Source of the DNA: a virus
Lineage: Duplodnaviria; Heunggongvirae; Uroviricota; Caudoviricetes
Virus record (IMG/VR): IMGVR_UViG_2740892230_000039
Strand: one strand, 5' to 3'
DNA length: 3,993 nucleotides
The notes beneath the pieces are model-generated. The model did no database searches, was not told the origin of the DNA, and worked only from the letters and a program-made list of their open reading frames with translations. The position numbers and the translations under genes are program-made. This document shows, in pieces, positions 1-3,993 of this stretch; position 1 is the stretch's first letter; each line of letters begins with the position of its first letter.

Positions 1-74
1 CCCGTAACGCCTCTGCCACGCGCGTAACGTGACAGGGATTAAAGGTAAACCAATTGATTTTGCAAGTTTTTATT

Positions 75-1361
75 TTACCCCGCTTTCTTATGGGGCATAC
101 ATGGGACACTTTCAGATAGTCTTTTGTTAAGGAGTTCTATCTGTTCGTGATTGTTGTCTTTCATCCATGCTCCGTAAACATTGAATACCATTTGTGCGTT
201 TGTGTGGCCCATCTGGCTTGCGATAAAACTAGGATTAGCTCCTGCGGCAAGTGACCAGCATGCATAAGTATGCCTGGATTGGTACGATTTTCTGTGTCTC
301 AGACCTGCGCGTTTTAAGATACTTGTCCATGACTCCCTGATGGAGTCAACCTTGTAGTGAGGTCCGGACAACTGCTGCTGTTTTGTTACCTGAGGACGAA
401 AAACAAAAGTGCATTTATGCACAGCAGTTCTCCCATATTCCCTCTGCTTCACCTCTACAGAATGTTGCTTTCCAAGCATGGTCATTTCCGCCTGGCTTTT
501 AAGAGCATCAATAGCTGGTTGAACCAGATGAATTGTCCTTCCGGTGCCTGCATCGGTTTTTGGTGGAGTGAATTCGCCAAGTTTTGTATAATTTCTACGG
601 ATGGTTATAGTCCTTGCTTTAAGGTCTATATCTTCCCATGCCAGCGATACCAACTCCCCGTGACGAATACCCGTGTATACAGCGAGAATCCACAGGTTTT
701 TTGTTTGTTGATGACGGCAAGCCTCAATAAAACGAATAAATTCGTCACGGGTGAGAGGATCTGGTTTTACCTTGGACTTTTTTAAGGGAGCCAGACCGTT
801 AAATGGGTTTCCTGAGGTATAACCATTATCTGTTGCAAATTGAAACATTCCAGCTATGGTTGTCATATAGTAGTTTACCGTGACCACTGAGCGCCCTTTT
901 ATGGAAGAAGTCTTTCCATTAGAAAGCTTTTGGTAACCGGTCAACAAATCTCTCCTTACGAAAAGTAAATCCTCTTTTGTTATGGATGAAACCAGTTTTT
1001 TTTCACCTAACATTGGTAACATGTTTTTAATTACTGACTGGTAACGGTTAAGTGCATTCGCACAAATCTCAATTTTCTTAAGGTCCAACCATTTTTCCGA
1101 AAGTGCCTTAACGGTTATCTCTCTTTTTCCCAGACCAAAGTGTTTCAGGTTAGGGGAATTAGGGAACTGCGCGGCGTAGTCGAAACTCCCCATTCTGATT
1201 GCAAAACAAACGGAAGTGCGAAGTTCACCAGCGATCTTCCGGTTTTTGGCTGTGTCAGGAACACCGAGGTTTTCTCTGACACGTTTGCCATTATAGTGAA
1301 ACCATATACGGAGTGATCCTCCATGGTTTTCAACGCCTGTCGGGTATGATGCGTTACTCAT
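75..1361 (-). CDS. int: Tyrosine-type site-specific recombinase (phage integrase), 428 aa
   Basis: Long uninterrupted minus-strand ORF. N-terminal arm-binding-like region (PTGVENHGGSLRIWFHYNGKRVRE). C-terminal catalytic-domain motifs in the expected order: Arg in AVYTGIRHGEL, second Arg in SYQSRHTYACW, His in QMGHTNAQ, catalytic Tyr in FNVYGAW. GGGAGG lies 4 nt upstream of the ATG. An excisionase-like gene sits immediately upstream on the same strand, the classical xis-int arrangement. Confidence 0.9.
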   Translation of the reverse strand: MSNASYPTGVENHGGSLRIWFHYNGKRVRENLGVPDTAKNRKIAGELRTSVCFAIRMGSFDYAAQFPNSPNLKHFGLGKREITVKALSEKWLDLKKIEICANALNRYQSVIKNMLPMLGEKKLVSSITKEDLLFVRRDLLTGYQKLSNGKTSSIKGRSVVTVNYYMTTIAGMFQFATDNGYTSGNPFNGLAPLKKSKVKPDPLTRDEFIRFIEACRHQQTKNLWILAVYTGIRHGELVSLAWEDIDLKARTITIRRNYTKLGEFTPPKTDAGTGRTIHLVQPAIDALKSQAEMTMLGKQHSVEVKQREYGRTAVHKCTFVFRPQVTKQQQLSGPHYKVDSIRESWTSILKRAGLRHRKSYQSRHTYACWSLAAGANPSFIASQMGHTNAQMVFNVYGAWMKDNNHEQIELLNKRLSESVPCMPHKKAG

Positions 1362-1394
1362 TAAACCTCCCAGACGTCCAGGAGCATTAACAGG

Positions 1395-1649
1395 TTAACC
1401 GGAACTTGCATTTTTGGCACCTGGTTGTTTCTGGTTTTCGATCCATCGCATAATTTCTTCGATGTTGTACAGGCATTCACTGTAATGCCCAGGATCACCT
1501 TCTACAGCGTAATGGCGGTATTCTTTTCCCTGCATCCATGACTTTCTTCTGGCCCGCTCGATGGTGCCGGGCTTTAGCCCTGTTGATGCAATAAGGACTC
1601 TCTCCGTACACCATTTGCTGGGGGTTATCTGATAGATGATTGTCTGCAT
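1395..1649 (-). CDS. xis: Excisionase-like recombination directionality factor, 84 aa
   Basis: Small basic protein directly upstream of int on the same strand with a 33-bp gap. The W...ST...R...W..GKEY pattern (KWCTERVLIASTGLKPGTIERARRKSWMQGKEYRHY) resembles excisionase-like winged-helix proteins of enterobacterial prophages. Assignment is from memory of the family and gene position, not from a search. Confidence 0.6.
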   Translation of the reverse strand: MQTIIYQITPSKWCTERVLIASTGLKPGTIERARRKSWMQGKEYRHYAVEGDPGHYSECLYNIEEIMRWIENQKQPGAKNASSG

Positions 1650-1667
1650 GCCAACCTCATAAAACTT

Positions 1668-1802
1668 TCATCCACGGCAGTGGAACCACACGTCAAACAT
1701 TCGTTTCACAACTTCACGGCAGTAGAAGCCGTCGACATCACGGGTCAGGTCGTAGCGATTGCCGAATGTCTTGCGAACCCAGAACTCAAAAGCCGTATGC
1801 AT
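1668..1802 (-). CDS. Hypothetical small protein, 44 aa (MHTAFEFWVRKTFGNRYDLTRDVDGFYCREVVKRMFDVWFHCRG); not in the supplied ORF track
   Basis: Hand-translated. ATG at 1802-1800 is preceded by GGAGGTGA with a 3-nt spacer; this Shine-Dalgarno contains the TGA stop of the upstream 80-aa ORF. Its own stop at 1670-1668 lies 18 nt before the xis ATG. Fits the operon-wide tight packing. Confidence 0.35.
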   Translation of the reverse strand: MHTAFEFWVRKTFGNRYDLTRDVDGFYCREVVKRMFDVWFHCRG

Positions 1803-1805
1803 GTA

Positions 1806-2048
1806 TCACCTCCGTTGCATTGCGCGTAATTTTTTCAGGCGCATTTCCTGCTCAGTGCCCGCCAGAATTTTGCGGTACTCCTGTTGGTCAATATGTTCGA
1901 ACAGGTTGTTGAACTCACCAATGCGTACCCGTCCGGAGCGCCCGTCCATGCGTCGAAAGAACACTGAGTGCTGAGTACTGCGAGTAATCACCACAGGGTA
2001 TCCGGCTCTGTCCGTGTATATCTGACCACGTTGAATCAGAGCGAACAT
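1806..2048 (-). CDS. Hypothetical prophage protein, 80 aa
   Basis: Minus-strand ORF co-oriented with int and xis and packed tightly against its neighbours (4 nt after the upstream stop, 3 nt before the downstream start). GGGGA lies upstream of the ATG. No family recognised by eye. Confidence 0.5.
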   Translation of the reverse strand: MFALIQRGQIYTDRAGYPVVITRSTQHSVFFRRMDGRSGRVRIGEFNNLFEHIDQQEYRKILAGTEQEMRLKKLRAMQRR

Positions 2049-2052
2049 TCCT

Positions 2053-2139
2053 TTATCCCCAGCGGAAAAGCGAATACAGAATAAATGCCACCGCTATTGC
2101 AACTCCAACTGCGGTGAATGCTTCAGGCCAATTCATCAT
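2053..2139 (-). CDS. Hypothetical 28-aa hydrophobic peptide (MMNWPEAFTAVGVAIAVAFILYSLFRWG), predicted single transmembrane helix; not in the supplied ORF track
   Basis: Hand-translated. AGGAGGTGA lies immediately upstream. The ATG at 2139-2137 overlaps the TGA stop of the upstream 240-aa ORF (2138-2136) in an ATGA arrangement. A 19-residue uninterrupted hydrophobic stretch is followed by RWG. Stop TAA at 2055-2053, 4 nt before the next start. Confidence 0.35.
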   Translation of the reverse strand: MMNWPEAFTAVGVAIAVAFILYSLFRWG

Positions 2140-2858
2140 TTCACCTCCTGCGGCGGTTCTGGTAGCTGCATCCAGTGGGTTACCTCTTTGAGATACAGGT
2201 CTTCGCCATCACCGTCATCCCAAGTGGGCTTGCCATCATTAAACCAGTCGCCATATACGCCGACCTGAGTGTTGGGGATGTTTGGTGGGTAGTTGTTTTT
2301 AAAGTCAGCTGCTAACACATAGCATTGTCGCTCTCCCATTTCAGGCATTCGCTCACTACAGCTTATCCAACCATCCGGAGTTACCGGATAGTTGCCATTC
2401 ACAAGGTCAGCTCGAACATATAGCGTGTCATCATGGTGTTGATTGTGGCTGCACCACGTTAATTCGCTTAACTNNNNNNNNNNCTCAGGCCACTGGCGCT
2501 CCATGTTGATCTTCAATTTATCTTCCATAGCAGCGGTAATTTCAGCATCGCTGATGCCAGCACGGCGCTGTGCATCCCACAACAGAAACTGCATATCAGC
2601 CCACTCGCTAAGATCGTCTGNNNNNNNNNNCGTTTGCAGCCAGATATGGGCTGGCGCATCTTGGCAAGGTGTATTAACTGGCAACTTGTAAGTTTGGCTT
2701 ACAGGTTCTGCACTATCAGCCTTGCGGCGCTCCTGTAGCTCGCGCAGAGCCGCTACAACATAATGGCTATTGTGCTGGTCAGCCCACAGAATGAGCCGAA
2801 TCAACGTTGCATTTGAAACGTATTCGTCTGTTAGTTTGCTATTGGTAAAAGTGGTCAT
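2136..2858 (-). CDS. Ea22-like prophage protein, 240 aa as translated through two N-runs; C-terminal W/D/G/P-rich region reminiscent of DUF551
   Basis: Minus-strand ORF with AAGGTGA 7 nt upstream of the ATG. The N-terminus MTTFT parallels MTTIT of the upstream paralog. An internal 45-aa module (DDLSEW...ERQWPE) is shared with the upstream gene. The C-terminal region (YPVTPDGWISCSERMPE...GVYGDWFNDGKPTWDDGDGEDLY...WMQLPEPP) matches my recollection of the DUF551 domain found in Ea22-like phage proteins. The true length is uncertain because the ORF is interrupted by N-runs at 2474-2483 and 2621-2630. Confidence 0.55.
   Translation of the reverse strand: MTTFTNSKLTDEYVSNATLIRLILWADQHNSHYVVAALRELQERRKADSAEPVSQTYKLPVNTPCQDAPAHIWLQTXXXXDDLSEWADMQFLLWDAQRRAGISDAEITAAMEDKLKINMERQWPEXXXXLSELTWCSHNQHHDDTLYVRADLVNGNYPVTPDGWISCSERMPEMGERQCYVLAADFKNNYPPNIPNTQVGVYGDWFNDGKPTWDDGDGEDLYLKEVTHWMQLPEPPQEVK
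2474..2483. other. Run of 10 N (gap or masked bases)
   Basis: Directly visible in the sequence. Lies immediately left of repeat copy A. Confidence 1.
2484..2620. repeat. Copy A of a diverged 137-bp direct repeat (coding module), bounded on both sides by 10-N runs
   Basis: Aligns without gaps to 2886-3022, with 131 of 137 positions identical. The six mismatches are at 2484, 2499, 2522, 2550, 2556 and 2586. Confidence 0.95.
2621..2630. other. Run of 10 N (gap or masked bases)
   Basis: Directly visible in the sequence. Lies immediately right of repeat copy A. Confidence 1.
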
Positions 2859-2870
2859 AGCTATTTCACC

Positions 2871-3251
2871 TTAATNNNNNNNNNNTTCAGGCCACTGGCG
2901 TTCCATGTTGATCTTCAATTTATTTTCCATAGCAGCGGTAATTTCAGCATCACTGATACCAGCACGGCGCTGTGCATCCCACAACAGGAACTGCATATCA
3001 GCCCACTCGCTAAGATCGTCTGGTTCGGCTGCGGCTTCCAGTGCCTCTTTTGAGAGGTGTTTCAGTGGACCAATGGGGCCAACGCAGCCAAATGTGGAGT
3101 CAGACCATTTGGCATGCTCGTGGCGAATCTGTTCGCGTTCCAGTGATGCCAGTGCAATTCGTGCCAGTTCCATTTGTTCGCCACGAGTAAGCCCGTTTTC
3201 AAGCGGATTTTTAATGAACAATTCAATACGTTCTTTGGTAATAGTGGTCAT
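2871..3251 (-). CDS. Ea22-like prophage protein, upstream paralog, 126 aa as translated; C-terminus undetermined because the last four codons fall in an N-run
   Basis: The ATG at 3251-3249 overlaps the TGA stop of the upstream 69-aa ORF (ATGA). GAGGA lies 7 nt upstream. The N-terminal part is charged and helical-looking (ERIELF...EQMELARIALASLEREQIRHEHAKW), followed by the shared DDLSEWADMQFLLWDAQRRAGISDAEITAAMENKLKINMERQWPE module. The apparent stop at 2873-2871 comes directly after the 10-N run, so the real end is unknown. Confidence 0.5.
   Translation of the reverse strand: MTTITKERIELFIKNPLENGLTRGEQMELARIALASLEREQIRHEHAKWSDSTFGCVGPIGPLKHLSKEALEAAAEPDDLSEWADMQFLLWDAQRRAGISDAEITAAMENKLKINMERQWPEXXXX
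2876..2885. other. Run of 10 N (gap or masked bases)
   Basis: Directly visible in the sequence. Lies immediately left of repeat copy B, between the two Ea22-like genes. Confidence 1.
2886..3022. repeat. Copy B of the diverged 137-bp direct repeat, preceded by a 10-N run
   Basis: Aligns without gaps to 2484-2620. Corresponding mismatch positions are 2886, 2901, 2924, 2952, 2958 and 2988. Confidence 0.95.
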
Positions 3252-3457
3252 GTGTTAATCCTCAAAACTTTATGCCCGGGCGCAAAAGTACGTGTTTTGT
3301 CTTTGCTTATTCGCCACCCGTCTTTACGGGCCTCTTTTGCACAACCAGACCATGACGTACCGATATACTCACCGAAGTCTGGCACTGGATATACACCTTC
3401 CGTACACTGGCGACAATCACAATAGAGATGCATGGTGTAACTTGCAGCGATAGCCAT
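3248..3457 (-). CDS. Hypothetical small Cys-rich protein, 69 aa (C-x-C-x2-C then a distal Cys and two His)
   Basis: Strong ribosome-binding site (AAAGGAGAG, then a 4-nt spacer, then ATG). The start is 1 nt after the stop of the upstream 62-aa ORF, and the stop overlaps the downstream start. Possible metal-binding motif HLYCDCRQC ... SGC ... PGH. Confidence 0.5.
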   Translation of the reverse strand: MAIAASYTMHLYCDCRQCTEGVYPVPDFGEYIGTSWSGCAKEARKDGWRISKDKTRTFAPGHKVLRINT

Positions 3458-3458
3458 A

Positions 3459-3647
3459 TCACTCTCCTTTAGTCCGCAAGTAGTTTTTCCAGCGGTTTTG
3501 CGCCGCGCTGGGCTTTTTGCAACAACTGTGACCCATCACCCCGCAACACCCCATCAACCTCACTCGTCTGTTACTAATCCTCACCCATCGCCAGACCCCA
3601 ACACCGTTTCTGCGAGCTAACAGAATCTTTGCTTTACGGTTTTTCAT
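3459..3647 (-). CDS. Questionable ORF, 62 aa, Arg/Trp/Gly/Cys-rich (contains GCCGVMGHSCC); coding status uncertain
   Basis: For coding: AGGAGAG 7 nt upstream of the ATG, and the stop is 1 nt before the next gene's ATG. Against: the ORF lies in a strongly purine-rich, degenerately repetitive stretch (C-rich on the plus strand, about 3530-3606) that would yield G/W/R/V codons by chance, and it contains a terminator-like hairpin. Confidence 0.3.
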   Translation of the reverse strand: MKNRKAKILLARRNGVGVWRWVRISNRRVRLMGCCGVMGHSCCKKPSAAQNRWKNYLRTKGE

Positions 3648-3819
3648 CGTTTTGCTCTCCTGCGTCTCTTTGCTGCTCGTCGTGCCGCTGCAATACCGGT
3701 ATGGCGGCGCTTTGGTGCCGGGATGATGTTGTCAGCTATCAGGACATGTGGCTTTGCAATTAGCGCAGAAGCCCAAAAACGAGTCGGGTACGGTAACAAG
3801 CCGATACATGCCACACGCA

Positions 3820-3993
3820 CTACTCACCCTCTTTGATGCGAATGCCTGCGGCGCGTGGCACATTAACTTCCACGATGCGCACTGTTGGTTTGTACATCTC
3901 AATCGCTGTCAGCCAGTCAGCTCCTGTCATGCGCTTTTCCGCATCGCCATTAGTCCACTGAACCGGTACACCAATAGCCTTCATCGCGATTTC
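3820..3993 (-). CDS. 3' end of a gene entering from beyond the right edge (C-terminal 57 aa: EIAMKAIGVPVQWTNGDAEKRMTGADWLTAIEMYKPTVRIVEVNVPRAAGIRIKEGE); product not recognised
   Basis: Hand-translated minus-strand frame, open from the window edge at 3993 to a TAG stop at 3822-3820. Same orientation as the rest of the operon. Too short to appear in the supplied ORF track. Confidence 0.45.
   Translation of the reverse strand, partial: EIAMKAIGVPVQWTNGDAEKRMTGADWLTAIEMYKPTVRIVEVNVPRAAGIRIKEGE

Follow-up and report, generated by a model that had tools for sequence, protein, structure and literature searches.

The window, by which we mean the whole stretch of 3,993 nucleotides that was analysed, carries a series of minus-strand prophage genes interrupted by Ns. 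The Ns are confined to three runs (2474-2483, 2621-2630 and 2876-2885), all three of the same fixed, conventional length of 10 N, and these runs divide the window into four segments, each with a natural context of its own that it matches at 99.9-100% identity. Two copies of a 137-nt module, copy A (2484-2620) and copy B (2886-3022), lie against the runs and differ from each other at six positions (2484, 2499, 2522, 2550, 2556 and 2586). Two ORFs meet the runs, both on the minus strand: a 240-aa ORF at 2136-2858 and a 126-aa ORF at 2871-3251. The features of the window are as follows.

1-2473: segment 1, putatively a single assembly unit, matching the mlrA prophage of 2013C-3264
1-54, minus strand: 5' end of mlrA, with the start codon at 54 (segment 1)
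75-1361, minus strand: integrase (segment 1)
1395-1649, minus strand: excisionase (segment 1)
1668-1802, minus strand: 44-aa ORF (segment 1)
1806-2048, minus strand: DUF4222 gene (segment 1)
2136-2473, minus strand: DUF551 gene, 3' 112 codons (segment 1)
2474-2483: N-run 1, probably a placeholder scaffold join and not 10 real bases, as the junction is absent from the genomes searched
2484-2620, minus strand: copy A, a 137-nt excerpt of the DUF550 domain of an E308-type DUF550-DUF551 paralogue (100% identity)
2621-2630: N-run 2, probably a placeholder scaffold join, from the same absence of the junction
2631-2875, minus strand: segment 3, the 5' 76 codons of the DUF551 gene (start codon 2858-2856) plus 17 nt upstream, 100% identical to BP-4795 and 2013C-3264
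2876-2885: N-run 3, probably a placeholder joining pieces of two prophage types, again from the absence of the junction
2886-3022, minus strand: copy B, in its own gene context and continuous into segment 4 without a break
2886-3251, minus strand: first 122 codons of a DUF550 gene cut by the gap (PF04447 profile positions 1-81 of 97)
2886-3993: segment 4, putatively a single assembly unit, 100.0% identical over 1,108 nt to the O104:H4 / 55989 prophage
3248-3457, minus strand: 69-aa ORF (segment 4)
3458-3819: unannotated stretch (segment 4)
3820-3993, minus strand: 3' end of an Ea22-like gene (partial), the only Ea22-like gene here (segment 4)

At its left end the window begins within the 5' end of mlrA, and the stop codon of the integrase lies about 20 nt from the mlrA start codon; positions 1-75 are the end of a prophage that has mlrA as its integration site, like those of 2013C-3264 and 2014C-3061. 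Near the right end, the 362 nt of 3458-3819 hold only two ORFs, both Arg/Cys-rich, of 62 and 58 aa, and the O104:H4 prophage of identical sequence has no gene annotated there. In related prophages this position is occupied by real genes of 84 and 177 aa, so the stretch may be a decayed gene.

The initial annotation had noticed that the 10-nt N-runs touch the copies of the 137-bp repeat, and this is borne out: each run adjoins a copy, and three of the four copy edges are in contact with a run, the exception being the edge at 3022/3023. The coincidence of N-runs and copy edges is far beyond chance, yet partly circular, because the apparent repeat length of 137 bp is set only by the cut of copy A. 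In natural loci, the identity between A-type and B-type sequences stays near 97% over a longer interval, from about -93 to +241 as counted from the start of the module.

The natural contexts of the segments were identified individually. Segment 1 (window 2-2473) has a single mismatch, at 2383, to the mlrA prophage of the complete genome of 2013C-3264, and segment 3 is 100% identical both to 2013C-3264 and to BP-4795 2483-2727, the 5' part of ORF5; taken together, segments 1 and 3 differ from 2013C-3264 at one base in 2,717. At position 2383 the window has A where 2013C-3264 has G (NYPA to NYPV), and this A is also the base in the E308-type paralogue from which copy A comes, and in part of the natural contigs. 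Copy A, which was suspected to belong to a different paralogue, does so: it is 100% identical to the DUF550-DUF551 gene of E308 (L004 3103-3239), from another prophage type, and covers only positions 37-83 of the PF04447 profile. Segment 4, with 100.0% identity over all of its 1,108 nt, matches a prophage that lies next to torI in the O104:H4 / 55989 lineage. Among 5,426 complete E. coli genomes, the rebuilt DUF551 locus is carried by 23, including O26:H11 and O145 STEC, and segment 4 (at least 80% coverage) by 35, including O104:H4 and 55989. No genome of the 5,426 carries both. Because the two sets are disjoint, the source is an unusual combination of prophages or a mixed sample.

The junctions were then searched one by one against the same 5,426 complete E. 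coli genomes. For none of the three window junctions were both sides found together in any of these genomes, and the whole arrangement was found in none at a coverage of at least 80%. In particular, none of the 5,426 genomes joins 2398-2473 to the module, and in none does the module lie closer than about 650 nt to 2631-2780. The flanking segments thus come from separate natural contexts, with junctions that are absent from finished genomes. Uninterrupted copies together with their junctions, as a real duplication or domain insertion would present them, were seen in 0 of the 5,426. Pattern scans permitting any gap of 0-30 nt were made of species-representative genomes, metagenome records and 2.9 million viral contigs, and gave no match to the window junctions; the join of segment 3 to segment 4 in particular is absent from the 5,426 complete genomes and from the pattern-scanned collections.

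As a positive control, the same scan was run on a direct join of segment 1 to segment 3. This join was found in 42 viral contigs, with a gap of 25 nt in all 42, and the gap sequence was CGCCATCTTCTGGCCATACTCCAGC in 37 of them. The comparison with complete genomes that had been proposed gave the same picture: segment 1, the 25 nt and segment 3 form one uninterrupted piece at 99.6-99.9% identity in 20 complete genomes. The true sequence between these flanks thus differs in length from the N-runs, in line with the initial reading of the runs as scaffold joins of unknown true length; where nature has 25 nt, the window has 10 N, copy A and 10 N. On its other side, segment 3 is followed by ORF6 of BP-4795, and never by copy B, in 12 of the 12 natural contigs that contain the whole of segment 3.

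The natural gene at this locus encodes a DUF551 protein of 196 aa (...HIWLQT-AGVWPEDGE-LSELTW...), and the 240-aa ORF is this gene with 44 extra codons. The ORF at 2136-2858 matches PF04448 (DUF551) over the complete profile (1-68 of 68; 72.8 bits, cut-off 22). Its suspected fortuitous nature is supported by the absence of its chimeric architecture among 5.8 billion protein clusters; the best cluster matches are of the 196-aa type and align with a 44-aa gap. The inserted material comprises 10 + 137 + 10 = 157 nt, and 157 - 25 = 132 = 44 x 3, so that the frame survives because the difference is divisible by 3 and copy A lands in frame. This preservation is a coincidence of about 1 in 9 and is compatible also with a real in-frame insertion. 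As 25 real bases stand in nature for the two N-runs and copy A, the 196-aa gene is the ordinary one, and the 240-aa ORF is fortuitous, an assembly artefact.

The 25 nt of BP-4795-type DUF551 genes (L001 2458-2482) encode AGVWPEDG. This is similar to RQWPEPKDGE, in which the DUF550 domain ends and passes into its linker, and it occupies the same relative place. Judging from this likeness, the 196-aa genes may have arisen from DUF550-DUF551 fusions through replacement or deletion. A search for natural DUF550+DUF551 proteins in which the module leads into 'LSELTW...' found none; all continue with PKDGEPRLHIKEPGN.

The 126-aa ORF belongs to PF04447 (dATP/dGTP pyrophosphohydrolase, formerly DUF550), with a score of 123 bits against a cut-off of 23. 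Its domain is incomplete, covering profile positions 1-81 of 97, as compared with 1-96 in an intact relative of 209 aa. Of its 126 residues, 122 are identical to a 209-aa DUF550+DUF551 protein that continues PKDGEPRLHIKEPGNSPVTPDGW... into DUF551, and intact relatives with exactly its N-terminus are 209-276 aa long and have a DUF551 tail. In 10 natural contexts, the gene next after the 69-aa gene encodes 119-257 aa with DUF550, DUF551 or both, and in none of the 10 does it end right after RQWPE. The apparent stop of the ORF (2873-2871) is part of segment 3. The 126-aa ORF is therefore a truncated dATP/dGTP pyrophosphohydrolase (DUF550) gene. The suspicion in the initial annotation that the upstream gene had lost its C-terminus in the gap is supported by the length of the relatives, but the gene is not Ea22-like, as had been supposed there: PF13935 (Ead/Ea22-like) gave no match at E <= 0.01 for either the 122-aa or the 240-aa sequence.

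In RefSeq, one continuous 209-aa ORF (L003 2737-3366), which corresponds to window 2886-3251 and sequence past it, is split into a CDS of 150 aa with a non-ATG start and an upstream pseudogene labelled 'incomplete'; in another gene call, identical DNA is given as a single 209-aa protein. In E. coli YDC107 (L058 3466-3816), two DUF551 pseudogene fragments lie between a 69-aa gene and ORF6. This locus, in a finished genome, is a genuine break-up of the DUF550/DUF551 module family by recombination. It was considered as a natural analogue of the window, having a match in five pieces and two DUF551 annotations, and was rejected, being an ordinary fusion-type locus plus unrelated fragments.

The ends of the segments were compared with the positions at which the paralogues differ. 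On the left of the module, the natural A-type and B-type loci share 46 nt without a difference; they then differ at relative positions 0, 15, 38, 66, 72 and 102, and next only at 156. Copy A and segment 4 both start exactly at the first of these SNPs (position 0), and copy A ends 34 nt past the last (102 + 34). In the assembler Velvet, the label of a node consists of the last nucleotides of its k-mers (PMC3488206), so that a paralogue-specific branch runs from the first SNP to the last SNP + k - 1. The length of copy A, 137 = 102 + k, then gives k = 35, which is odd and lies inside 31-47, the sole range in which the six SNPs merge into a single branch. Since both module copies start at a SNP, the true left flank of each is the shared linker for at least 34 nt, and a distance of only 10 nt from the sequence shown to the left is impossible for either copy.

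The value of k was derived from copy A alone, and the other ends served as predictions. With k = 35, SNPs are predicted at 2439 (the end of segment 1 at 2473 being 2439 + 34) and at 2631, with the 59 nt between the two sites identical in some paralogue. At 2439 the window has T, and 30 of 42 natural contigs have C; this site is the dominant polymorphism of the region. Among 45 contigs in which the 25 nt are followed by a non-C base, 43 have C at 2439, the identical 59 nt and T at 2631. At k = 35, the node common to the two alleles contains 25 k-mers, and its label is the exact 25 nt that are missing from the window. We also simulated the graph from four natural loci, trying every odd k from 21 to 65. 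Only k = 35 reproduced the 25-nt node together with the point where segment 1 ends, the two ends of copy A and the point where copy B starts; the simulation also yields extra node boundaries where the window has no N-runs.

Altogether, five of the six segment ends lie at branch points of a de Bruijn graph with k = 35. The sixth, at 2875 in segment 3, is not explained in this way. A SNP at 2841, as this end would require, had no match in viral contigs, and the paralogues compared diverge at 2849, which would place the end at 2883 and not at 2875; in the simulation no node boundary was produced at 2875. The ends of segments 1 and 3 were also considered as mosaic breakpoints, with divergence at 2474, before 2631 and at 2876. 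No matches were found in any of these cases, that at 2876 being sought in viral contigs, and the model of SNP-bounded nodes was adopted instead.

Given the observed segment identities, the absence of the three junctions, the join across 25 nt in nature and the segment ends and confirmed predictions that agree with k = 35, it is very probable that the N-runs are placeholder joins among four short-read assembly fragments and that the 240-aa and 126-aa genes read across them are artefacts. The window would be a scaffold of four short-read contigs, each a de Bruijn node at k = 35, with placeholders of the minimum length of 10 N between them. From the sequence comparisons, the source genome presumably had several lambdoid prophages whose DUF551 and DUF550 genes are paralogous. 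Where these paralogues are identical for at least 35 nt they would have collapsed into a shared node, and where they differ they would have given allele-specific nodes, each starting at the first distinguishing SNP and ending 34 nt past the last. Segments 1 and 3 would then both come from a single ordinary DUF551 gene of 196 aa, as its allele-specific parts, and the 25 nt between them a node shared with the second allele and dropped. Copy A would stem from another prophage, as the bubble branch of a DUF550 gene there, and would be out of place within the DUF551 gene; the scaffolder probably slotted it between segments 1 and 3 on the strength of read pairs reaching into DUF551 sequence common to both loci. 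Both this read-pair logic and the choice of assembler are our inferences. Segment 4 would begin at the homologous SNP of another DUF550 gene, that of an O104:H4-type prophage, and would have been appended. Velvet writes gaps of less than 10 bp as 10 N (manual), which fits the reading of the runs as minimum-length placeholders; for a '10 N minimum gap' rule as such, no source was found in the papers searched.

Of the other readings, the one that survives best, though we hold it to be very unlikely, is that the arrangement is real: an in-frame DUF550 piece of 44 codons would lie inside the DUF551 gene, or would have been lost from BP-4795-type genes, with a DUF550 gene directly upstream, and the Ns would conceal only short junctions that are hard to assemble. 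The reading frame is indeed intact across both N-runs, lambdoid early regions are highly mosaic, and 'VWPEDGE' of the BP-4795 type sits where 'QWPE(PKDGE)' of copy A would end, a hint of shared linker ancestry. Nevertheless, the junctions are missing from every collection searched (the 5,426 complete genomes, the 2.9 million viral contigs, the metagenome records and the species representatives), and the 5.8 billion clusters contain no such protein. A de Bruijn assembly would moreover have crossed a unique junction and carried the contig about 34 nt into the repeat. The start of both copies at an A/B SNP requires at least 34 nt of shared left flank, whereas the visible flanks are unrelated, and a second allele of the plain 196-aa gene accounts for the ends of segments 1 and 3. 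A real in-frame insertion thus has, in our estimate, a very slim chance. Its most specific form is a DUF551 gene with half of a MazG-like DUF550 domain inserted in frame as 44 codons, beside a second DUF550 gene and with the Ns as short junctions. Such a gene would be the undeleted ancestor of the BP-4795-type ORF5, in which 'VWPEDGE' would be the scar; we hold this form, too, to be very unlikely.

It is more doubtful still that the placeholders were kept and k = 35 is wrong in detail, the pieces having been joined by hand, under the guidance of a reference or by an assembler not of the Velvet type, or drawn from a mixed sample. Fixed spacers are common in contig-ordering pipelines, the disjoint sets of complete genomes carrying the DUF551 locus and segment 4 are compatible with a mixture, and the end of segment 3 misfits the k = 35 model. 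However, five of six ends fit a single k, two predictions made from it were confirmed afterwards, and a 137-nt contig running from a SNP to a SNP + 34 is specific to last-nucleotide node labelling. The least credible reading is deliberate masking, which the initial annotation had offered as the alternative to scaffold joins: masks laid by a provider or pipeline over exactly 10 real bases each, in otherwise correct sequence, would suit three runs of equal length and are known from some collections, but they require the literal arrangement, which the evidence just given against a real insertion leaves unsupported, as well as a spacing of 10 + 137 + 10 where segments 1 and 3 are naturally 25 nt apart, and no masking rule has reason to follow graph branch points set by paralogue SNPs.

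Read as placeholder joins among assembly fragments, this feature of the window is an assembly artefact of low biological interest that matters for data hygiene only. Neither a 240-aa DUF551 protein with half of a DUF550 domain nor a short DUF550 protein of 126 aa should be annotated, and gene calls that run across these Ns should be excluded from counts of new architectures and from analyses of domain shuffling. The geometry of segment ends, combined with public paralogues, can recover the k-mer size of an unknown assembly and diagnose a chimeric scaffold without reads.

The window can be compared with several known systems. With Velvet-type scaffold gaps in multi-prophage E. coli it shares the fixed runs of 10 N, contig ends at paralogue SNPs and at SNP + (k-1), a short bubble-branch contig among paralogues and the loss of a shared 25-nt node; unlike in that model, the contig end at 2875 misfits. 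Ea22 / Ead of phage lambda (PF13935) belong to the same early-left lambdoid region, and an Ea22-like gene ends at 3820-3993, but the 126-aa and 240-aa ORFs are members of PF04447 and PF04448. A close relative of the 126-aa ORF is the torI-adjacent 209-aa DUF550+DUF551 protein of O104:H4 / 55989, annotated as dATP/dGTP pyrophosphohydrolase domain-containing, whose first 122 aa are 100% identical to the product of window 2886-3251. Unlike the gene for this protein, the window is without the last 87 codons (the end of PF04447, the PKDGEPRLHIKEPGN linker and the DUF551 domain) and has an unrelated stop codon after the gap. The int-xis-DUF4222 surroundings are those of the 2013C-3264 mlrA prophage and of BP-4795. 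In the window, however, the DUF551 gene is followed by an O104:H4-type segment and not by ORF6 and an Ea22-like gene as in these two, and N10 + 137 nt + N10 take the place of the 25 nt in ORF5 of BP-4795 and in 2013C-3264. With those 25 nt restored, window 2136-2473 + 25 nt + 2631-2858 encodes BP-4795 ORF5 (YP_001449242.1), the DUF551 protein of 196 aa.
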